This document shows, piece after piece, positions 11,141 to 21,892 of a stretch of DNA of 64,000 nucleotides (position 1 is its first letter; each line of letters opens with the position of its first letter). A model generated the notes under the pieces. The model worked only from the letters and a program-made list of their open reading frames with translations. It did no database searches and was not told the origin of the DNA. Made by a program: the position numbers and the translations under genes. The DNA comes from an uncultured Nitrososphaerota archaeon (GTDB taxonomy: Archaea > Thermoproteota > Nitrososphaeria > Nitrososphaerales > Nitrosopumilaceae). The stretch lies in contig OY969559.1 in the NCBI GenBank assembly GCA_963701075.1, positions 1,632,001-1,696,000 of the forward strand. Reading direction: 5' to 3'.

Positions 11141-11506
11141 TTAGTTTTGATTTTTCTTTATGGCATCATTTATCATTTTTGCTGCCATTTCGTTGTCGTC
11201 GACCTCAAAGACTATCTTTTTGTAAAACTCGTGGTTCAAAGATACTGTTATGCATCGGTCTTTATGATGCATCTCAAAGAATACAAGACCGTCTCCTGTC
11301 ATGTACGTTCCATCTTTTATGATTCCAGGGATTCCAGTGCCTGCAACCTTCATTTGTTCAAAGACTCCCCACGGTACCTTTTCAGCTGAGGCAGACACGA
11401 CATGGCTTAGCGGTATAGTTATTGTTCTTCGCATTGTTAAAATCACATCTACGCCGTGAATTTCAAAAACCAGGTTGTCACCTTCAATTCTTACTTTTCC
11501 AGACAT
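11141..11506 (-). CDS. Hypothetical protein (PH-like)
   Basis: 121-aa ORF; ITIPLSHVVS and AGTGIPGIIKDGTY patterns. Confidence 0.7.
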   Translation of the reverse strand: MSGKVRIEGDNLVFEIHGVDVILTMRRTITIPLSHVVSASAEKVPWGVFEQMKVAGTGIPGIIKDGTYMTGDGLVFFEMHHKDRCITVSLNHEFYKKIVFEVDDNEMAAKMINDAIKKNQN

Positions 11507-12632: not shown

Positions 12633-13335
12633 TTGAGGCAAACTCGTAAAGCCCTGAAAAAATATCATGACCAAAATAAACATGGAAAAAAGAAAGTCAT
12701 TCCAGAGCCCATTCCTAAAAACATTCTTGAGTTTGTCAAAAATTACAGAATCATAAAAGGACAACCGTACTCGCTCAAAGGACGGGAATTTCTCATTCAG
12801 ATATATTTGGATATAGTACAACAGATCAATATAGTTAAGGCAAGGCAGATGGGTCTTACCGAGTTTGCTATGAACTGGCTCTTGTTTCATCTTTTGACGT
12901 ATCAAGGCACATGTGGCTTGTATGTAGCAGATAGGGAATCCCATGTCTTAGCGTTTGCGGACCGCCTCCGTGAAGCTGATACTCAGTTCAGAGAAGCTAA
13001 AGCCGTGGATAGTTAGAATAACAAACGAGAGCGTCAAATTTGCAAATGGTTCAATTCTATACATGATTACGGGTTGGGGCAAGTTTGAAAAAGCTCGCTC
13101 ATATCCGGTTGACTTTGCTGTAGTGGATGAGGTCCAGTCACTTGACCTTGAGGGACTGCCTGTGTTAAAGGAAACACTGTCAGCCTCATCCCACAAGAGA
13201 CTCGTTGTGATTGGCACAGGCTCTGATCAAGGCGATCTCTGGTGGGATGAGTGGCACCGTGGAACTCAACTTAACTGGGTACCGGCTCACGACAACACAC
13301 CAAGATCTCAGGTATATGCGGCGGGCATAGGCTGA
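12633..13335 (+). pseudogene. Phage terminase large subunit ATPase domain, frameshifted near 12972 and truncated
   Basis: Walker A-like KARQMGLTE, FANGSILY, Walker B FAVVDE, coupling motif IGTG; no nuclease domain follows. Confidence 0.8.
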
Positions 13336-13481: not shown

Positions 13482-13784
13482 TCACTCCATCTTGGACTCG
13501 TCTGCAACAAAATGCTTCATGAGCGATATGATATACGACGAGGTGCGGATGTTCTCGTGGGCATAGCTTGTATGGATGAACCGCATTTTTTCATGCATTG
13601 AGAGTGCCTTGGTCCATATCTGCCTTGCAGTGGAGCGGTCAATTGTCCACAGTGTGTCGTCTGACGTGGTTACAATTATTCTTCCCCCAGAGTATTTTGC
13701 AAAAAATGGCTTGGTCTGGGTTGCAAACTGTTTTTGTGTGGCAAGGTTTGTTGTCATTGTACCCCAATACTCGTCGAATTTCAT
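13482..13784 (-). CDS. Hypothetical protein
   Basis: 100-aa ORF with ATG start. Confidence 0.5.
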   Translation of the reverse strand: MKFDEYWGTMTTNLATQKQFATQTKPFFAKYSGGRIIVTTSDDTLWTIDRSTARQIWTKALSMHEKMRFIHTSYAHENIRTSSYIISLMKHFVADESKME

Positions 13785-14173
13785 GGTACGATTATAGTAT
13801 TTACTTTGATTTAACTAGTTTTGATGGTTTTTTCTGCATGGTGTTGTTTTTGGGGTATTGGTGCCAGGATGAAGGTTGTTTTTGGATATATTGTGTTTGA
13901 ACTCTAGTGGAAGATTTGTTGGGTGTTTTCGCCAGGACGACGGTGACACATCTCGCTTTCCGCGCCGTAAAATAATCAGGTAAGTAGGGTGAAAACCTGA
14001 AAAACCTTTTCCCAATTTTTTACTTTAATTAAAACAGATTTTGTTTAGGGATCAGAGATCCTATTTGTTAAAATGCATTATTCTTATCAGTTCTGTATTT
14101 GATTGAAGTTCAAATCGGAAGGTCTGGGTGCTGATATAGGTTCACTTTTTGGATTCATGTTTTAAATAGATAA

Positions 14174-14707
14174 TTACAGGTTACTGGCATCCTGACCCAT
14201 CTGTCTTCTTCGTGTGACAATACCGTGACATGAAGGGCATAATGCTCTACAATTAGATTCGTCATTATTCGATCTATCACTGTCTTTATGATCCCAATCC
14301 AAAATCGTAAGTAATCTACCACATATGGCGCACTTATGATCCTGTCTACGAATGGTTTTGATTTTTGTTTCCTCTGAGAAATCCAATCGCGGTATGTTTG
14401 TACGATCTTTTCTGATCTTTTTCTTTTTGTTTATTTTCAGGGGTTTGTATAGTTGAAGTAAATCATCTATCTCATTAACCAGTTCTTTAGTAAATTCTTT
14501 TTTTGTAACATTATTTATTTTAAAGAAGTTTGTTTTTACACTATTAATAATAGAAAAAAGATTATGTTGGGATTTTCTTTTAATTATTTTTTCAGCTGTT
14601 TTTTCAGAAAGATTTAAAGAAAAATCATCTGCTTCCCTCCATCCATTTTTGTATAACACATCCCATATTCGCGATTGAATTGATGATTTTAGATCAGCAA
14701 ATGTCAA
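14174..14707 (-). CDS. HNH endonuclease with uncharacterised N-terminal domain
   Basis: CAICG..DWDHKD..NNDESNCRALCPSCH; start overlaps the stop of the upstream gene. Confidence 0.85.
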   Translation of the reverse strand: MTFADLKSSIQSRIWDVLYKNGWREADDFSLNLSEKTAEKIIKRKSQHNLFSIINSVKTNFFKINNVTKKEFTKELVNEIDDLLQLYKPLKINKKKKIRKDRTNIPRLDFSEETKIKTIRRQDHKCAICGRLLTILDWDHKDSDRSNNDESNCRALCPSCHGIVTRRRQMGQDASNL

Positions 14708-15081
14708 ACAGATTTTATTCCAAATTTTTTTGTTAGTTCTTTTTCTATATTTAATATCTTTACTTTTGTAGTTTTGTCATAGATTTTACCCTGTCTAGTA
14801 GTTTTTTTAACATAAATTAGATCCTCTGCAAGCAGTTCCCCTATTCTTGTAGATACATGTGGTTGTCTCATAGGCTTTAGTTTTTTAACTAACTCATTTA
14901 CAGTTCTTTCCCCATCAACCGCCAAAAAGACTTTTACCCTATCCTTTGATTTACCGAAAAAAATCATCAAATCAGTTACTATTTCTTTTCTGTTTGCACG
15001 AAGTAGCAGATCAACGGATTTGTCTAGACCATCCACTTTATACCGTATTTCTCTAACATCTCGTTCTAAATGTTCTGTCAT
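14704..15081 (-). CDS. Coiled-coil + winged-HTH protein
   Basis: KVFLAVDGERTVNELVKKL..QPHVSTRIGELLAEDLI wHTH pattern. Confidence 0.75.
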   Translation of the reverse strand: MTEHLERDVREIRYKVDGLDKSVDLLLRANRKEIVTDLMIFFGKSKDRVKVFLAVDGERTVNELVKKLKPMRQPHVSTRIGELLAEDLIYVKKTTRQGKIYDKTTKVKILNIEKELTKKFGIKSV

Positions 15082-15084
15082 ATT

Positions 15085-15252
15085 TTATTCCTTAGATTTT
15101 GATTGTTTGATGTTTTTCGGAATGAATTCGTATAATGTTTTAGTACTCATTCCAGTAGCTTTCACTATATTTTCTATTGGTATTCCTTGTTTGACTAGTT
15201 GTATTATAAGTAATTTTTTGATAATGTTTAATTCTTTTTGTATATCATCCAT
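15085..15252 (-). CDS. 55-aa HTH protein (absent from ORF track)
   Basis: MDDIQKELNIIKKLLIIQLVKQGIPIENIVKATGMSTKTLYEFIPK..; fills the gap between flanking genes. Confidence 0.75.
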   Translation of the reverse strand: MDDIQKELNIIKKLLIIQLVKQGIPIENIVKATGMSTKTLYEFIPKNIKQSKSKE

Positions 15253-15253
15253 T

Positions 15254-15454
15254 CTAATTCATCTTTCTCACTATTGCATGTACCTTATCTCTGTCAGTTT
15301 TTAGAAAATCCTTTATTTCAGATTCTTTCATACCTATTTTATACAATGTAATTACCTGATTTTTGAAATCGAGATCTTTTATTATATTTACAAGTAGAGC
15401 TTTTGTTAAAAAGTCAAGTTTATTGGTTAAAATGGAAAACTGATCATCATTCAT
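15254..15454 (-). CDS. Small coiled-coil/HTH protein
   Basis: KLDFLTKALL..QVITLYKIGMKESEIKDFL; ATGA-type overlap with upstream gene. Confidence 0.75.
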   Translation of the reverse strand: MNDDQFSILTNKLDFLTKALLVNIIKDLDFKNQVITLYKIGMKESEIKDFLKTDRDKVHAIVRKMN

Positions 15455-15651
15455 TTTTTATTCCTCAATTGTGAGAGGGTAGAATTTACAGTGTTTTGTG
15501 TCTTGTCCAAAATTTTTGCTATGTCTTTATTACTTATCCCCAACTTATGTAACAATAAAATTTGTTCGCCTGCATCTTTATCTTTTATCAACCCAAATGC
15601 GAGGAGTTTGATTATAGTATCCAACTTTTGTAGAGTTTCTTTTTCATTCAT
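15451..15651 (-). CDS. Small coiled-coil/HTH protein
   Basis: KLDTIIKLL..EQILLLHKLGISNKDIAKILDKTQNTV. Confidence 0.8.
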   Translation of the reverse strand: MNEKETLQKLDTIIKLLAFGLIKDKDAGEQILLLHKLGISNKDIAKILDKTQNTVNSTLSQLRNKK

Positions 15652-15874
15652 TTGTTTTCACCTTTTTTGCTTTTGATTTTTCTTTTGCAACCATATTAGT
15701 GGTCGTATCTAAAATATTGGCAATTTGTTGGTTTTCGTATCCTTGTGAAATGAGATAAATTATTTTCTCACCCATGGTTTTATTTTGAAATTTTGATGGA
15801 CTAAGCAATATTCCAATTATTGTTTCTAGTCTTTTATTAATATCTGTATTTTTCTCCTTACCTGATTCACTCAT
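15644..15874 (-). CDS. Small coiled-coil/HTH protein
   Basis: RLETIIGILL..EKIIYLISQGYENQQIANILDTTTNMV. Confidence 0.8.
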   Translation of the reverse strand: MSESGKEKNTDINKRLETIIGILLSPSKFQNKTMGEKIIYLISQGYENQQIANILDTTTNMVAKEKSKAKKVKTNE

Positions 15875-15994
15875 AATATCATTATATTGTGACTAGTTAT
15901 ATTTAAATTTTGCACATGGTGTGAAATATGGTAATCCATTAAGCCTTAATTATTTAAAGAAAATAGGCATAAATTTAATAATTTTCTAAAAGTA

Positions 15995-16034
15995 ATATTA
16001 CCATATTACCATATTTACATATTTACATATTTGT
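15995..16034. repeat. Five tandem 8-bp repeats in divergent promoter
   Basis: ATATTACC x2, ATATTTAC x2, ATATTTGT; 12-bp inverted copy at 15924-15935. Confidence 0.8.
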
Positions 16035-16065
16035 TACATAGCCACACACCATAAAATCCAATAAC

Positions 16066-16299
16066 ATGGTCATTTTAGTATCTCATATGTCAAAATCGAG
16101 AAAATCTGAAATAGAATTGTTGGAGGAAATGAATGAAAAATTAGGTAAATTAGTTGGCATTCTTGCCATTCAAGGAAAAAACGAAGATGAACAAATTCGC
16201 ATTTTGAAGGTTCTGGGGTTTAGCTCAAAACAAACGGGTAGTCTGTTAGGAATTGAAGACTCTGCCATTAGGCATAGAAAAGCATGGACTCAGAATTAA
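16066..16299 (+). CDS. Small coiled-coil/HTH protein, divergent paralogue (start probably 16087)
   Basis: KLGKLVGILAIQGKNEDEQIRILKVLGFSSKQTGSLLG. Confidence 0.75.
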   Translation: MVILVSHMSKSRKSEIELLEEMNEKLGKLVGILAIQGKNEDEQIRILKVLGFSSKQTGSLLGIEDSAIRHRKAWTQN

Positions 16300-16315
16300 C
16301 TCAGACCCTGTTTTT

Positions 16316-16507
16316 TTATCCCTTTAACAAATCCGCCAATGTCTTTACTTTGGTTTTTTCGGGTTCTTCACTATTGATTCTATTCATTATGGATTCTTTG
16401 ACAAATGCTGATGGCGTACAACCATGTTTGTTGCAGGCATCAAGTAATTTACTATGTTCGTCTTCGTTTAACTTGGTAGACACAACTTTGTAGACCATGG
16501 TAGACAT
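16316..16507 (-). CDS. CopG/RHH-like protein
   Basis: VVSTKLNEDEHSKLLDACNKHGCTPSAFVKESI beta-helix-helix pattern. Confidence 0.7.
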   Translation of the reverse strand: MSTMVYKVVSTKLNEDEHSKLLDACNKHGCTPSAFVKESIMNRINSEEPEKTKVKTLADLLKG

Positions 16508-16526
16508 TGGTAGACAGATGGTAGAC
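16474..16526. repeat. Five (TG)GTAGAC direct repeats over the RHH start
   Basis: Copies start at 16474, 16490 (GTAGAC only), 16498, 16508 and 16519. Confidence 0.8.
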
Positions 16527-16697
16527 TAGAATATGCTTTGTTATAGGTTCAAATTTTGAAAGATCTGAACTCTAAGGTTTACTCACTACAAACGAGTTCA
16601 TTGATAAAGAGCAAAAATGGAATCCCCCCTCTTTGTGAGGAAAAACATGCTGTTGTCGTAAAACTTTAAGGGTGACATTTTCGGTGAAAATTTTATC

Positions 16698-17252
16698 TTG
16701 GGATCTGTATTTGTGTCGCATAGTAAACACGATGTCGATATAGTGAATTATTTTGCCAAAATTTTTGCTAGATTGAAATTACAAGCACATTTTATGGAAC
16801 TAGAGGATCTAGCAGGAAAATATCAAGGTGCTAGAATATCTGACATAATTCGTTCAAATTTTGTTGAAGATACAAAGGCTGTAATAGTTCTATTAGGAGA
16901 AAACCTAGAACATCCTCCAACTCCTACTCCACAATATACGCATAACTGGGTAAATTTTGAAGTAGGTGTAGCAGCGGGTTCTAGCAAACCTGTGTGGGTT
17001 TTTGAAAAATTCGATGAAGTAATCCAATTTCCAATTCCCTATGTAACGGATTATTGTCAATACCATCTAGGCAATGTTGATGAGTTAAGAGGCATAGCGG
17101 ATCTTTTAGAAAAACTATATCAACATAACCTTGTTGTCCAACCTGCAAGAATTCTAAAATGTCATCTATGCCAAGCCTCGTTCAGGCAATGGAATAAAAA
17201 TCAGACATGTATTAACTGCCCAGTATGCAGGCAATTCACTTGTGGCAGTTAA
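16698..17252 (+). CDS. TIR-domain protein with C-terminal Zn ribbon
   Basis: VFVSHSKHD, AVIVLLG, WVNFEVGVAAGSSKPVWVF; CHLC...CPVC. Confidence 0.8.
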   Translation: MGSVFVSHSKHDVDIVNYFAKIFARLKLQAHFMELEDLAGKYQGARISDIIRSNFVEDTKAVIVLLGENLEHPPTPTPQYTHNWVNFEVGVAAGSSKPVWVFEKFDEVIQFPIPYVTDYCQYHLGNVDELRGIADLLEKLYQHNLVVQPARILKCHLCQASFRQWNKNQTCINCPVCRQFTCGS

Positions 17253-17298
17253 TAATTATCCATGATGTTAATTTCTAAAATATCCTTCTGTTCTTCTC

Positions 17299-17661
17299 TT
17301 ATTGCAACCTAGGATCATGACAGGTAGGAAGGTAAGAGAGATACGGCTTGGGGGTTCCATTACAGTCTTGTTTAATGATATTTATTGCATGAATGCAGGT
17401 AGTAGAATTAGAAATTGTAGTGTGGGCACATTGGTTTAGAATGTTTTCCGTTTCGTTGTTAAGGTTATTGAATACTGTTGCGTTAATTGTTGTCTGACCG
17501 GTGTAATTGAGAATTTTTCCATCTAGGTGTGATGTTAATTGTTCGGTTTGATTATTGGCCTGTTGGGCTTGGGGAAGCTGAGATGGCAGGACAAGTAGAA
17601 TAATCACAATACCAACAACAAGACTTGCAACACTAGTGATGAGTTTGCCTACAGTTTTCAT
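17299..17661 (-). CDS. Membrane-anchored hypothetical protein
   Basis: N-terminal TM, Asn/Thr-rich, four Cys. Confidence 0.65.
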   Translation of the reverse strand: MKTVGKLITSVASLVVGIVIILLVLPSQLPQAQQANNQTEQLTSHLDGKILNYTGQTTINATVFNNLNNETENILNQCAHTTISNSTTCIHAINIIKQDCNGTPKPYLSYLPTCHDPRLQ

Positions 17662-17781
17662 TTAGTTTTTCCATAACCGCGAGTTGAGTATTTACGGCGC
17701 TTTAAAAGGCGTAGCAAATCCGGTTCTGCTACAAACTCTTTTCCCAAATTTTTTAATTTTCAAATTTCGAACCTTGTTCCT

Positions 17782-18361: not shown

Positions 18362-18925
18362 ATGATAAACAGATATGTCTTTTACATTGCAATTTTTGCA
18401 ATCATATTTTATGGAATAAATTTTAGCCTAGTTTATGGATATACTGATGTAGGCCAACTTATTGCAAGCAAGTATTATCTTTCGCTAGATAATAAAACAT
18501 ACACTATATTCTATTTCTTGCATAATCTGGATACATCAAATACCGACATGTCCAATCTGGATTATGCGGGAAAAATCTCATCAATATCAATGGAACCCAA
18601 CAAAAATGCAATGCTGATCTCACTTGATAATATCTCAACAAATGATGAGCTCTCCGTGGGTTTCAACAGTGCAATAATTTCAGCAGATAATGGAAAATTC
18701 GTGGTTTTTGTAGATGGTGTTGAAAAAGGGTATGCCATATCAACAGCATTTGGAACTGACACGGTTATAACCGTCGTAACTCCAAACGGCACTAGTAATG
18801 TGGAAATAGTAGGTACACATGCAGGTCCAGAATTTGGCCCAGTGGCATTATCAGTGCTTGCTATTTCAATAATATCCATCATGATTATTTCAACAAGAAC
18901 TAGATTGAGATTTTCACAATTCTAG
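18362..18925 (+). CDS. PEFG-CTERM surface protein
   Basis: Signal peptide; C-terminal GPEFGPVA + TM + basic tail. Confidence 0.85.
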   Translation: MINRYVFYIAIFAIIFYGINFSLVYGYTDVGQLIASKYYLSLDNKTYTIFYFLHNLDTSNTDMSNLDYAGKISSISMEPNKNAMLISLDNISTNDELSVGFNSAIISADNGKFVVFVDGVEKGYAISTAFGTDTVITVVTPNGTSNVEIVGTHAGPEFGPVALSVLAISIISIMIISTRTRLRFSQF

Positions 18926-18971
18926 ATTATGTAGTTTCAAAACAAAAAATCTATGATGAATAAACATTAGA

Positions 18972-19892
18972 TCAGACTAGAATATCCCGTAAGCGAAAAG
19001 TTTTGGTAAGTGATTCAGATCTCATTCTTAGAGCCACGGTACTTATTCCAGCAGCATCTGCCATTTGTTTCTGAGTAAATCTTTCTCCATTGTTTACAGA
19101 TGATATGTAAAGTGCGGCAGCGGCCAATGCTATAGGGTTTTTCCCAGCTGCATAGCCGCTTTCCTTGGTCTTTGCTAGGATCACCAATGCATCCCTTCTA
19201 CTCTTTTCAGAGGTACCTACGTTACTTGCTATCCTATTGATAAAAAATGAAGAATCATAAGACTCTATTTTCAAATCAAGATCCTCAATCAACAGTCTGA
19301 CATCTCTTGAAAGATCCTTTACGCTGATGTTCCCAGCTGTTGCAATATCTGGTATGGTTCTTGGTGTGCTAGACTGCCTACAGGATAAATATAGTGAAGC
19401 CAATGTCAAGCAATCAATCCTCCTGCCCCTGATTTTCTTGGTCTTTGCCTTTCTGTATATGTAAGCTGCTTCCTCAATTATCGGATCTGACAAGCCAAGT
19501 TTTGTTCTTACGGTATTGAGTAGAGTAAACGCAGTTCTCATTCTTGCTTCAGAATTTCCAGATTTGCTGCGATTATCCCACATTCTTAGCCTGTCAAATG
19601 TCTGTTTCATTCCCCCTGATAGCGAGTGTCCCGTGGCATCTCTGTTTTCTTTGCCAATAATTGTTGACAATCCCATATCGTTTATTGCAAGTGTTGTTTT
19701 GGCACCAGTCCTAGATTTTTCAAAATACTCTTCACTGGTGAATGCCTGTTGTTCTGGCCCAGAAACGGGGGTCTTTTCAACTAGTACCAAGCCACAGTTG
19801 GAACACAAAATCTCTCCAGTGGCATCATCAGTTACGACTGAGCCTTTGCACTTTTCATTTAGACATTTTTCAATATCTGGTGAGGAACGCAT
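18972..19892 (-). CDS. tfb: Transcription initiation factor IIB
   Basis: Zn ribbon C..C/CSNCGLV, DMGLSTII, two cyclin repeats, GKNPIALAAAALY. Confidence 0.93.
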   Translation of the reverse strand: MRSSPDIEKCLNEKCKGSVVTDDATGEILCSNCGLVLVEKTPVSGPEQQAFTSEEYFEKSRTGAKTTLAINDMGLSTIIGKENRDATGHSLSGGMKQTFDRLRMWDNRSKSGNSEARMRTAFTLLNTVRTKLGLSDPIIEEAAYIYRKAKTKKIRGRRIDCLTLASLYLSCRQSSTPRTIPDIATAGNISVKDLSRDVRLLIEDLDLKIESYDSSFFINRIASNVGTSEKSRRDALVILAKTKESGYAAGKNPIALAAAALYISSVNNGERFTQKQMADAAGISTVALRMRSESLTKTFRLRDILV

Positions 19893-20037
19893 GTTAGAAA
19901 TCAGGATAATAATAGGTCGTTTTTCTTATTTAAACACTGATAAATTTAGGTCGCCCTAATTTTTTTACATAAAAATAGGTACAATAGAAATTGGTAATCA
20001 AAAAAATATTCTTATCAGAGGATGCAATCCTTATTTT

Positions 20038-21843
20038 GTGACTGAATACGAAGGACTGCGAACCGCAGATATTGTTGTCGAAGGTTTGCTTCGATGGGGA
20101 GTTGAAGTAATTTTTGGATTGCCTGGTGACGGAATTAATGGAGTATTCGAGGCATTACGACGCCGCAAAGAAAAGATCAAGTTCATTTTAGTCAGACATG
20201 AAGAGTCTGCAGCTTTTATGGCATGTGCATATGCCAAATACACAGGCAAGCTTGGTGCGTGTGTTGTAACCTCTGGACCAGGTGCCACACATCTTCTAAC
20301 GGGATTGTATGATGCCAAAGCTGATGGAGCACCAGTAATTGCAATCACTGGAAATACCTACTCGGATATGATGGGCTCCAAGTATCAACAAGACATCAAT
20401 CTCTTACAGCTGTTTTCAGATGTTACAGTTTACAATAACATGATAAATGGTCCTGAACATGCTGAATCTGTAATAGACATTGCATGCAGGGATGCTCTTG
20501 CGTTAAGGGGAGTAAGCCACATCACAATTCCAATTGACATTCAAGAAAGGAAACTAAAAGGAGAATATACAAGACATAATGTTGGCGGTCATACCGCACA
20601 TCTTCTTTCTCCAACAACAGCCAACAGGGTTCCAGACACAAGATTGCTTGAGAAAGCAGCAACAATTCTCAATTCCGGAAACAAGATAGTTTTACTGGTA
20701 GGACAAGGGGCTTTGAATGCAGGCGATGAGGTGATTGCAACTGCCAGAAAGCTTTCTGCCCCTGTAGTAAAGGCACTACTTGGCAAGGCAGTCATTTCTG
20801 ACGATGATCCTTACAACATTGGTGGTCTTGGTCTTCTTGGAACCGAACCGGCAAGCGATGCAATGGTTCAAGCAGACACTCTGTTAATGGTTGGCACATC
20901 TTTTCCGTATATGGAATATCTGCCGAAGCCTGGAAGTGTAAGAGGGATACAGATCGATATATTTCCAGACAGGATTGGCTTGCGGTATCCTGTAGAGGTG
21001 GGGCTTGTGGGAGATGCAAAACTAACCCTTGTAAAGCTGTTACCACTTTTACGTCAAAAAGATGACAAGTTTCTCAAATCAAAGCAAGAGGCAATGAAAA
21101 AGTGGAACAAGCTGATGCATTCGTCTAATCCTTCTGCCAAACCAATCAAGCCACAATTAATTGCAACGGCAGTCTCGGAAGAATTAGCTGATAATGCAAT
21201 AATTTCAGCGGATAGTGGAACCAATACAATCTGGGCTGCACGTCACATCGATCTCAGAAAGGGGATGAAGTTCTCGTTATCAGGCACTCTTGGTTCCATG
21301 GCATGCGGACTGCCATACGCAATAGCAGCACAGATTGCATTTCCAGACAGGCAGTCAGTGGCATTTGTAGGAGATGGTGGATTTACCATGCTAATGGGTG
21401 AATTTGCTACCGCTGTGAAATATGATCTGCCGATCAAAGTAATCATAATCAAAAATGACATTTTGGGAATGATAAGATGGGAACAGATGGCATTTCTTGG
21501 AAATCCTGAATATGGCATAGAGTTTGCTCCAATTGATTTTGCAAAGTTTGCCGAAGCTTGTGGTGGCAAAGGTTATTCAATAAGAGAGCCAAGTGAAATT
21601 AAAAATGTGATTCATGAAGCCATGTCACAAACTAAACCAACTATTGTAGAAGCATACGTAGATCCGTTTGAACCTCCAATGCCTCCAAAGGTTGACATGA
21701 AATTCGTGAAAAATATGGCAGAGTCGTTTGCAAAGGGGCAGCCATATGCAAAAAGAATAGGATTGACAATTTTCAGAGATCAAGTACACGAGAAACTTGG
21801 AAAGATTCACAGTGACTCGGAAAAGAAATCAAAACAAGTTTGA
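20038..21843 (+). CDS. poxB: TPP-dependent pyruvate oxidase/dehydrogenase family enzyme
   Basis: IFGLPGDGIN, RHEESAAFMA, TSGPGATH, GDGGFTM..KNDILG TPP motif, DPFEPPMPP. Confidence 0.8.
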   Translation: MTEYEGLRTADIVVEGLLRWGVEVIFGLPGDGINGVFEALRRRKEKIKFILVRHEESAAFMACAYAKYTGKLGACVVTSGPGATHLLTGLYDAKADGAPVIAITGNTYSDMMGSKYQQDINLLQLFSDVTVYNNMINGPEHAESVIDIACRDALALRGVSHITIPIDIQERKLKGEYTRHNVGGHTAHLLSPTTANRVPDTRLLEKAATILNSGNKIVLLVGQGALNAGDEVIATARKLSAPVVKALLGKAVISDDDPYNIGGLGLLGTEPASDAMVQADTLLMVGTSFPYMEYLPKPGSVRGIQIDIFPDRIGLRYPVEVGLVGDAKLTLVKLLPLLRQKDDKFLKSKQEAMKKWNKLMHSSNPSAKPIKPQLIATAVSEELADNAIISADSGTNTIWAARHIDLRKGMKFSLSGTLGSMACGLPYAIAAQIAFPDRQSVAFVGDGGFTMLMGEFATAVKYDLPIKVIIIKNDILGMIRWEQMAFLGNPEYGIEFAPIDFAKFAEACGGKGYSIREPSEIKNVIHEAMSQTKPTIVEAYVDPFEPPMPPKVDMKFVKNMAESFAKGQPYAKRIGLTIFRDQVHEKLGKIHSDSEKKSKQV

Positions 21844-21892
21844 ATCTACATAAATTATTGCCTTTTCTGCAAGAGAAATAGATGGAAAGTGA

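Follow-up and report, generated by a model that had tools for sequence, protein, structure and literature searches.

What are several very small genes for helix-turn-helix (HTH) proteins doing when they stand packed together in front of a gene for an HNH nuclease? This question is raised by positions 14174-16299 of a 64,000-nucleotide stretch (hereafter the window) of the genome of an uncultured archaeon of the Nitrosopumilaceae (contig OY969559.1). Our best reading is that the block is a conserved cassette that moves horizontally within the Thermoproteota, mainly among ammonia-oxidising archaea, and that it is often found on or beside integrative elements. We further suggest, with a probability of roughly 0.55, that it is an autoregulated conflict cassette, serving either defence or addiction. 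This suggestion is built on what the analysis shows, namely the genes, folds, active-site residues, purifying selection, order of the paralogues, exchange of effectors, shared adaptors and the low content of guanine and cytosine (GC) of the block.

Anatomy of the operon

The genes of the block and the promoter region between them are listed here with the evidence in brackets. The small proteins were clustered by pairwise score into subfamilies A-P.

15644-15874, minus strand: g76, small HTH protein of 76 aa, first gene of the operon, subfamily E (open reading frame (ORF) list, paralogy)
15451-15651, minus strand: g66b, small HTH protein of 66 aa, subfamily D (ORF, AlphaFold, near-threshold Pfam matches)
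15254-15454, minus strand: g66a, small HTH protein of 66 aa, subfamily D (ORF, paralogy to g66b at 2e-8)
15085-15252, minus strand: g55, short HTH protein of 55 aa, subfamily C (ORF, Pfam HTH_7, alignment)
14704-15081, minus strand: W, MarR/ArsR-like winged-HTH protein of 125 aa (AlphaFold, Foldseek, homologues)
14174-14707, minus strand: HNH effector of 177 aa, with an N-terminal adaptor at about 1-90 and a predicted zinc-bound HNH domain at about 120-166 (Pfam, PHROG)
16066-16299, plus strand: g77, divergent small HTH paralogue of 77 aa, subfamily A (ORF, paralogy)
15875-16065, no strand: divergent promoter region with operator-like repeats (TTWMCATAT matches)

From g76 to the HNH gene the first two junctions are overlaps of 8 and 4 nt, the next two are gaps of 1 and 3 nt, and the last is an overlap of 4 nt. 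At this last junction the HNH gene begins with a TTG that runs over the TGA stop of W, and the two genes are predicted to be translationally coupled. The divergent g77 lies about 190 bp from the operon and has 77 aa from its first ATG or 70 aa from the ATG at 16087. The first-pass annotation, made from the letters and their reading frames, had described six packed genes on the minus strand with a divergent one, in an AT-rich block. The same genes are in the ORF list, and GC is indeed 0.27-0.30 over 14250-16250 against about 0.40-0.45 in the flanks. This low-GC block of about 2.5 kb is cassette-sized, and an array block of about 2.9 kb in a related locus (L041) likewise has a GC of 0.33-0.46 against 0.53-0.60 in its flanks.

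The ratio of non-synonymous to synonymous substitution rates (dN/dS) is 0.09-0.38 in six of the seven orthologous gene pairs, and in the seventh the synonymous sites are saturated; the values are rough, dS being high in several pairs. For g76 the ratio is 0.27-0.30, and for g66b it is 0.09 against the orthologue in G034, an unpublished genome. By these estimates all seven genes are intact and evidently under purifying selection. Because the orthologous genes have such ratios and the array recurs in other genomes, the block stands above what chance would produce.

The small HTH paralogues and the winged-HTH protein

Four of the small proteins are clearly related. In phmmer comparisons g66b matches g76 at 7e-9, g66a at 2e-8 and g77 at 2e-5, and g76 matches g77 at 6e-4, while the link of g55 to the other small proteins is marginal (7e-3). 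Of the five paralogues first counted, g66b, g76, g66a and g77 therefore stand, and the 55-aa protein is a weak fifth. Residues L10, L17 and G38 are invariant across the five-way alignment of the small proteins. The AlphaFold model of g66b (35-row alignment; predicted local distance difference test, pLDDT, 88.5) has helices at 3-22, 27-36, 41-48 and 52-65; as modelled, the protein is a 20-residue N-terminal helix followed by a three-helix HTH. Its HTH superposes on NarL and DosR over 41 residues with a root-mean-square deviation of 1.6 A, at weak E-values of 0.2-0.7, and sigma region 4 HTH domains are also among its weak fold matches. In Pfam, g66b scores 24.6 bits on Sigma70_r4_2 (cut-off 25.7) and 19.2 bits on GerE (cut-off 23.5), in both cases below the cut-off. 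In general the small proteins lie at or near the Pfam thresholds of resolvase, homeodomain-like and sigma-region-4 HTH families, and g55, whose N-terminal helix continues straight into the first HTH helix in the alignment, passes that of HTH_7 (24.5 bits, cut-off 23.8).

The profile of the small HTH proteins also matches long proteins of 234-4100 aa that consist of 4-14 tandem similar HTH units (P0087-P0234). By eye, a protein of 152 aa (P0169) can be divided into two full units, both of them with an N-terminal helix. P0113, P0140, P0174 and P0091 are also among the matching proteins.

The W protein is of a different kind. Its AlphaFold model (36 rows, pLDDT 82.8) has a long helix at 3-29, a helix at 31-43, a winged HTH and C-terminal helices, which is the topology of MarR/ArsR-type regulators, in which the winged HTH is flanked by N- and C-terminal helices. 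The top Foldseek matches are TcaR, MepR, MarR, SqrR, CzrA and SmtB (best E 4.9e-4), and the match to 6o8k has template modelling (TM) scores of 0.58/0.75. No Pfam family matches W itself. It has 42 homologues, and those at 51-63% identity and more distant ones carry PF12840, PF01022 or PF12802. In the model the N-terminal helices of W look like the usual dimer helices of MarR/ArsR proteins. The idea that W shares the N-terminal helix of the small proteins by descent is not upheld, as neither phmmer (E >= 0.025) nor profile-profile comparison with hhalign (probability 9.6%) finds it to be their paralogue.

The HNH effector

The last gene had been read as an HNH nuclease, and this is confirmed. 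The 177-aa protein has the features of the HNH (beta-beta-alpha-Me) superfamily, matches Pfam HNH at 21.3 bits (cut-off 21.4) and PHROG HNH families down to 3e-8, and has its catalytic and zinc-binding residues intact. Eleven relatives were found in a collection of 5.8 billion proteins. C126, C129, D139, H140, N147, N152, C157, C160 and H161 are invariant across 11 sequences of the protein, and because both CxxC pairs, D139-H140, N147/N152 and H161 are thus conserved, the nuclease looks active. For residues 1 to about 90 Pfam gives no match with a meaningful E-value.

In PHROG the protein is best matched by phage HNH endonucleases, and the remains of a terminase lie 1 kb away. Some tailed phages have HNH endonucleases that act together with the terminase. 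The protein might therefore be the leftover packaging or homing endonuclease of a decayed tailed provirus, with the small HTH genes as non-functional leftover early genes. The terminase remnant is real, as first proposed: two overlapping frames on the plus strand, 12633-13016 and 12955-13335, match positions 22-101 and 125-210 of the 576 of phrog_675, which covers only the N-terminal ATPase third of the large subunit. It is, however, on the opposite strand to the operon, and the genus-conserved gene at 13482-13784 lies between them. Since a 121-aa gene (11141-11506) directly adjoins that 100-aa gene (13482-13784) in three relatives (G013, G033 and G006), the segment 11509-13479, which contains the remnant, is a separate insertion of about 2 kb. 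Furthermore, all seven genes of the block are intact and appear to be under purifying selection, and no terminase match is found beside the orthologous operons L038, L048 and L051 in the available sequence. We consider a decayed provirus very improbable. Assignment of the protein as a terminase-associated packaging HNH was likewise rejected, the terminase here being two fragments on the other strand in a separate insertion.

Recurrence of the cassette and order of the array

A search profile built from 17 small proteins finds the array in 10 of 63 genomes of the genus (E <= 1e-4) and in 21 of 401 sampled genomes of the class, from five genera (E <= 1e-5). At the level of the phylum 14 of 401 sampled genomes have it. 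Eight matching genomes lie outside the class; three of their loci (L056-L058) were looked at, and the other five match the HTH part only, inside longer frames. The window's own genome, a single contig of 1.92 Mb, has the small family and the single-copy W at this locus only. The profile also finds 86 proteins of the small family in the 5.8-billion-protein collection. They are mostly thaumarchaeal where a source is named, and they are unnamed, hypothetical or annotated as HTH regulators, save one CsgD-family regulator.

The whole operon is found in a complete Nitrosopumilus genome (L038, the same locus as L053), with five small HTH genes, W and the HNH gene. The best-matched pairs are 52-69% identical in amino acids to the window: the first gene is 58% identical to g76, L038:6716-6916 is 52% identical to g66a, L038:7124-7345 is 63% identical to g55, W (123 aa) is 69% identical and the HNH protein (177 aa) is 52% identical. 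The W and HNH genes again overlap by 4 nt. Five metagenome loci were found for the HNH family, and W is directly upstream of the HNH gene in all four full-length relatives. Four small HTH genes precede the pair in L048 and five in L051; L049 and L050 have the pair at the end of the contig. The fifth locus (L052) matches the HNH domain only, without W or small HTH genes. The genome collection has three HNH loci, which are L038 again, L054 and L055; the last is a match of the HNH domain only, without an array, and L054 was left out of the inspection.

For the analysis of gene order 22 loci were cut out, of which nine besides the window are from the genus and twelve from the class. ORFs were called mechanically as the longest frame, so that lengths are approximate. 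The order of the subfamilies is conserved: E comes first in 7 of 22 loci and is followed by B or D; C, F or H come next, and W or the effector closes the series. Examples, read 5' to 3', are:

Window: E D D C W, then the HNH effector; A divergent
L038: E B D C W, then the HNH effector
L030: E D B, then a Ymh-HEPN effector; A divergent
L027: E B F A, then a winged-HTH effector of unknown type
L032: E B G B, then a winged-HTH effector with an RNxxDH motif
L036: E B H, then a winged-HTH effector of unknown type
L037: E B C W W W W, then a 260-aa protein

Shorter forms also exist. A single G-type gene precedes a short Ymh-HEPN gene in L026, L028 and L034, and L045 is a two-gene form of A followed by a winged-HTH-HEPN protein. 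Subfamily A is divergent in the window and L030, and in line right before the effector in L027, L028 and L045. Many free-standing W-type proteins are found in the arrays, with four or five copies in L031, L037, L044 and L046.

Exchange of effectors and shared adaptors

A larger gene on the same strand abuts the array in 20 of the 22 loci. The effector types are HNH, four types of HEPN, TIR and a probable Mrr-like nuclease. For ten loci the effector domain was either found by scanning the protein itself or assigned because the protein clusters with one that was scanned. These comprise the HNH effectors of the window and L038, the Ymh-HEPN effectors (PF09509) of L026, L030 and L031 (direct scan, E 1e-10 to 4e-14) and of L028 and L034 (BLAST clustering with L026), and the Swt1-like HEPN effectors of L029 (3e-5, below the cut-off), L042 (28.9 bits) and L046 (7e-12). 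In L034 a TIR effector (3e-20) stands beside the Ymh gene. For the other ten loci there are leads only, which comprise an Mrr-like C-terminal domain in L027, L036, L039 (split) and also L028 (language-model clusters, score 0.88); a DUF4145/AbiJ-like HEPN domain in L033, L040, L041 and L043 (Pfam E 0.026; Atlas 0.93 and structural neighbours); an RNxxDH motif seen by eye in L032 and L045; and the 260-aa terminal protein of L037, which has the N-terminal domain of the window HNH protein.

The exchange can also be followed at the level of DNA. Positions 15437-16003 of the window are 79% identical to a segment of the unpublished genome G034 (G034:C20), whose operon ends in a Ymh-HEPN gene. The array thus matches and the effector differs, which means the same 5' genes with different 3' ends. 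Apart from this match, 14034-16647 has no DNA match in the genus.

Each effector carries one of three N-terminal adaptor domains that are shared among them. The first (a) is an N-terminal domain of about 70 aa that is common to the long Ymh, the Swt1-like and the DUF4145-like proteins. Across these classes phmmer gives 57 bits for L046-L031, 28 bits for L043-L029 and 15.6 bits for L042-L030; the database was eight sequences, so that the bits weigh more than E-values. The second (b) is a W-like winged HTH, which is fused to the TIR (L034), Mrr-like (L027, L028 and L036) and RNxxDH (L032 and L045) effectors and stands alone ahead of the HNH gene in the window and L038. In L045 it matches Pfam HTH_27 at 7.4e-5. 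The third (c) is the N-terminal part of the window HNH protein, whose roughly 80 residues start three other array-end proteins: the 260-aa protein of L037 (2e-6), a 262-aa protein with a different C-terminus from a genome of another class (L056; 1e-10), and a 201-aa protein with a C-terminus of a different HNH subtype (L057; 6e-14, Pfam 7.5e-12).

The first-pass annotation had proposed to test whether gene order is conserved and whether the last gene is exchanged for other effectors. Both tests were run and came out positive, the former in the order of the subfamilies and the recurrence of the whole operon, the latter in the HNH, HEPN and TIR genes at the ends of arrays. On these two results we take the HTH genes to be tied to an exchangeable effector of nuclease or NADase type. 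The proposal that the small HTH set controls or targets the HNH nuclease is supported as far as order and effector exchange fit a functional cassette that ties the HTH genes to the effector.

Conflict cassette or cargo of integrative elements

The surroundings of several arrays raise the question whether the cassette is a unit in its own right. Tyrosine-integrase-like genes or fragments are found near the array in 6 of 22 loci (L028, L029, L030, L032, L036 and L038); L036:9799-10941 matches the phrog_1 integrase at 1e-19 and the other five are linked to this gene by BLAST. Terminase genes are near the array in 3 of 22 loci, as fragments in the window (WIN) and as intact proteins in L030 (613 aa) and L042 (584 aa). 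The array could thus be the regulatory region, for immunity or maintenance, of small integrative elements or virus satellites of Thaumarchaeota, with the 3' end as a cargo hot spot; the HTH proteins would then run the life cycle of the element, and the abortive infection (Abi)-type effectors, as independently inserted single genes, would be linked to them only by co-transcription, in the way that prophage exclusion genes are linked to repressors. Operons of several small HTH or winged-HTH proteins are common in archaeal viruses and plasmids, F-93 of SSV1 is among the fold matches of W (rank 30), and the array blocks are low in GC. The parts consulted of Krupovic et al. 2019 (PMC6563490) report cryptic integrated elements of very small size, made up of an integrase, winged-HTH and hypothetical genes, and one element with only terminase genes.

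Free-standing cargo would not be expected to look as these effectors do. They carry N-terminal adaptors that are associated with the array and are common to unrelated killing domains, W is directly upstream of the HNH gene in all four full-length metagenome relatives, and the W and HNH genes are probably coupled in translation. The low-GC block contains little beyond array and effector in the window and in L041, and no replication, excision or structural gene is consistently present at the loci. Among 50,697 phage and archaeal virus records tblastn finds no relative of g66b or W, and for the HNH protein only the HNH domain of two Erwinia phages; scans of IMG/VR with two queries (g66b and the 125-aa family) also found nothing. 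We therefore regard the cargo explanation as possible, on the unlikely side, and prefer the conflict cassette.

Several observations weigh against the conflict cassette. Firstly, the link to an effector is not universal: none was found in L044, nor in L047, where the contig ends (2 of 22), and the effector is not the last gene in L026, L033, L041 and L042. Secondly, ten of the effector calls are leads only, from language-model neighbours, weak Pfam matches or a motif read by eye, and the winged HTH on the TIR and Mrr-like effectors was assigned by iterated search of a small local database, which may drift. Thirdly, kin genomes are not independent and the counts of genomes overstate the number of events, and the informative loci L029, L030 and L031 are from unpublished genomes. 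The promoter repeats described below resemble archaeal TATA boxes and may overlap them. Integrase-like genes or fragments, which 6 of 22 arrays have within about 2 kb, and terminase genes, which 3 of 22 have nearby, mean that the arrays could simply regulate mobile elements. Finally, no RNA data set carrying the stretch was found among the sequencing runs listed; it is present in six soil-metagenome DNA rows from two studies.

Comparison with known systems

The first-pass annotation had known of no named system with this layout, and PADLOC and the literature search turned up none. PADLOC gives domain-level matches only, and in the full texts searched, supplements apart, no description of ordered small-HTH arrays with exchangeable effectors was found; some of these genes may already be listed in the supplementary element annotations to Krupovic et al. 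2019. We class the cassette with the known adaptor-plus-effector modules of Abi or toxin-antitoxin (TA) type, and see as new the ordered array of several HTH paralogues in front.

The closest relatives are the Abi-type HEPN proteins (AbiJ, AbiD/F, Ymh and DUF4145), of which Ymh and DUF4145 are named as HEPN families in the sections consulted of Anantharaman et al. 2013 (PMC3710099). As presented there, such proteins combine a conserved N-terminal domain with interchangeable HEPN, TIR or restriction endonuclease domains, like the array effectors, and are found in defence or mobile contexts. Ymh (PF09509) and Swt1/Abi2-like HEPN domains end several of the related arrays. In the same sections (PMC3710099) the proteins are described as solo genes or in restriction-modification operons, with no mention of a preceding HTH array, whereas our arrays place 1-8 small HTH or winged-HTH genes ahead of them. 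The effector of the window differs in addition in being an HNH nuclease with a different adaptor.

In type II TA modules a small DNA-binding antitoxin gene lies upstream of an overlapping toxin gene and the pair is autoregulated. The cassette is alike in having small DNA-binding genes before an overlapping nuclease gene, in a likely autoregulation through repeats, and in being mobile and patchily distributed, and the pairs of G-type and Ymh genes in L026, L028 and L034 look like plain two-gene modules. It differs in having four to eight distinct HTH paralogues of conserved order rather than one antitoxin, and in effectors that include TIR and HNH and carry adaptor or DNA-binding domains of their own. 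The two-gene layout is found in relatives only, and the window has six co-oriented genes and a divergent one, so that we did not assign it to type II TA modules. In prophage immunity regions with co-transcribed exclusion genes, and in restriction-modification systems with a controller (C) protein, there are one or two regulators. They share with the cassette small HTH regulators before a co-transcribed harmful nuclease or exclusion gene on a mobile element, but lack an ordered paralogue family and an exchangeable effector with an adaptor.

Two PADLOC models match effectors of relatives strongly: PDC-S66 matches the C-terminal part of the TIR effector of L034 (2.5e-46) and PDC-M34B the Swt1-like HEPN effector of L046 (4e-47). 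These matches concern effector domains only, and the window proteins match neither model. PDC-M34A has no match among the ten array proteins scanned, and on the mechanism of PDC-S66 and PDC-M34 nothing was found in the portion of the literature that our search covered. Three named systems were set aside. For type II Zorya the HNH domain alone matches ZorE (3.1e-5), with no match to the motor proteins ZorA or ZorB among nine neighbouring proteins; for Thoeris the ThsB match is weak (5.6e-5), with no ThsA among the nine neighbouring proteins scanned. PDC-M05 (HEPN-MNT), to which there are only weak generic matches, was rejected because it is a nucleotidyltransferase plus HEPN system, as given in the part consulted of PMC12988326.

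A proposed mechanism

In the divergent promoter region four copies of TTWMCATAT with an exact 8-bp spacing lie at 15998-16030 and one inverted copy lies at 15926-15934. Five of the 15 matches in the window are thus within 105 bp; 4.85 matches are expected in 64 kb, and none of 100 shuffles reaches 15. Short direct repeats were also seen by eye upstream of the arrays in L038, L030, L027 and L032. The repeats are candidate operators, a role that we infer and put no higher because of their likeness to TATA boxes.

We suggest that the cassette would work in three layers. The first would be the ordered, distinct small HTH paralogues, each with an N-terminal helix and a LuxR/sigma-region-4-like HTH; the second, the MarR/ArsR-like winged-HTH protein; and the third, the terminal effector with its N-terminal adaptor and exchangeable killing domain, which here would be a zinc-bound HNH DNase. 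The HTH proteins would bind the iterated short repeats of the divergent promoter, making the operon autoregulated. Through protein-protein contacts the winged-HTH protein, the adaptor domain or both may tether the nuclease to the DNA-bound set and keep it silent. A virus or rival element that disturbs the set, or loss of the cassette, would be the trigger by which the nuclease is released or induced. The freed nuclease, which would be toxic, might then kill or arrest the cell, or cut the invader, in abortive infection or addiction. A complex prediction of two copies of W with the HNH protein (score 0.00, mark 0.32) gave no answer and speaks neither for nor against contact.

A bolder form of this proposal, which takes up the hetero-oligomer of the first-pass annotation, is that the paralogues are subunits of one hetero-oligomeric, DNA-bound reader, joined by their N-terminal helices, that licenses the adaptor-tethered effector. 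Such a reader might recognise foreign or altered DNA or an attack on itself. It is hinted at by the conserved order of non-redundant paralogues and by the natural fusions (P0169 and the proteins of 4-14 units), from which it seems that such units may act in series, and we hold it to be doubtful.

Surrounding genes

The first-pass annotation had placed the block between a dead terminase and a TIR gene. Neither is part of the unit, and the terminase remnant is in the separate insertion. The TIR candidate exists as a gene (16698-17252, plus strand, 184 aa) and is only weakly TIR-like, with a TIR/ThsB-like N-terminus (PADLOC ThsB 5.6e-5, Pfam TIR_2 E 0.14) and a Cys-rich C-terminal end. DNA relatives of it are found in other contexts in G033, G075 and G028. 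In the DNA comparison within the genus the transcription factor B (TFB) gene with the next gene (18957-21859), and 13482-13784, are widely conserved; a TFIIB-like ORF is seen by translation at 18972-19892 and marks the host as an archaeon. Close homologues carry source names that give the genus as Nitrosotalea.

Beyond g77 lies a gene for a 63-aa protein (16316-16507, minus strand), a possible ribbon-helix-helix protein with weak matches (NikA-like 1.4e-3, ParG E 0.1). Four exact copies of GGTAGAC lie within 52 bp (16475-16526) at the start and upstream of this gene, out of eight in the whole window; they look like an operator or iteron set, inside the low-GC block. A 20-nt direct repeat (14132-14151/16539-16558, 17/20) brackets the block from the HNH gene to this candidate ribbon-helix-helix gene. 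We do not claim it as an attachment site: by a rough estimate chance alone would give about two such pairs in this AT-rich stretch, and relatives show no empty site. A tRNA scan of the window found none.

Further away, the DNA at 17286-17714, with a gene for a 120-aa predicted membrane protein (17299-17661, minus strand), has partial copies of 82-90% identity in the same genome (G000:C1:137395-137603 and 138017-138203), and a copy of 18465-18946, 82% identical, lies a short way outside the window. Known defence genes are found beside some other arrays, which speaks for the conflict cassette: a 909-aa EVE-GmrSD-Schlafen/AlbA_2 fusion directly beside the array and a terminase gene in L042 (3272-6001, minus strand; Pfam 2.5e-7, 4e-36 and 9e-19), an HsdR-like gene in L031 (an unpublished genome) and a 343-aa TIR protein in L026.

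Implications

The cassette brings together ordered tiny DNA-binding proteins, three adaptor domains and killing domains of at least seven interchangeable kinds. Should the array serve to sense invaders or to guard mobile elements, this would be a new sensing principle for prokaryotic conflict systems, and the profiles of its subfamilies and adaptors would be handles for finding further effectors. If the hetero-oligomeric reader proved true, archaea would have a new type of immune architecture, with tiny proteins resembling transcription factors doing the sensing as a combinatorial array. Even if it does no more than control small integrative elements, the array would define a new family of such elements and the hot spot for their cargo. 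Little of archaeal immunity has been charted, and the cassette is recurrent and testable in ammonia-oxidising archaea, which are globally important nitrifiers.

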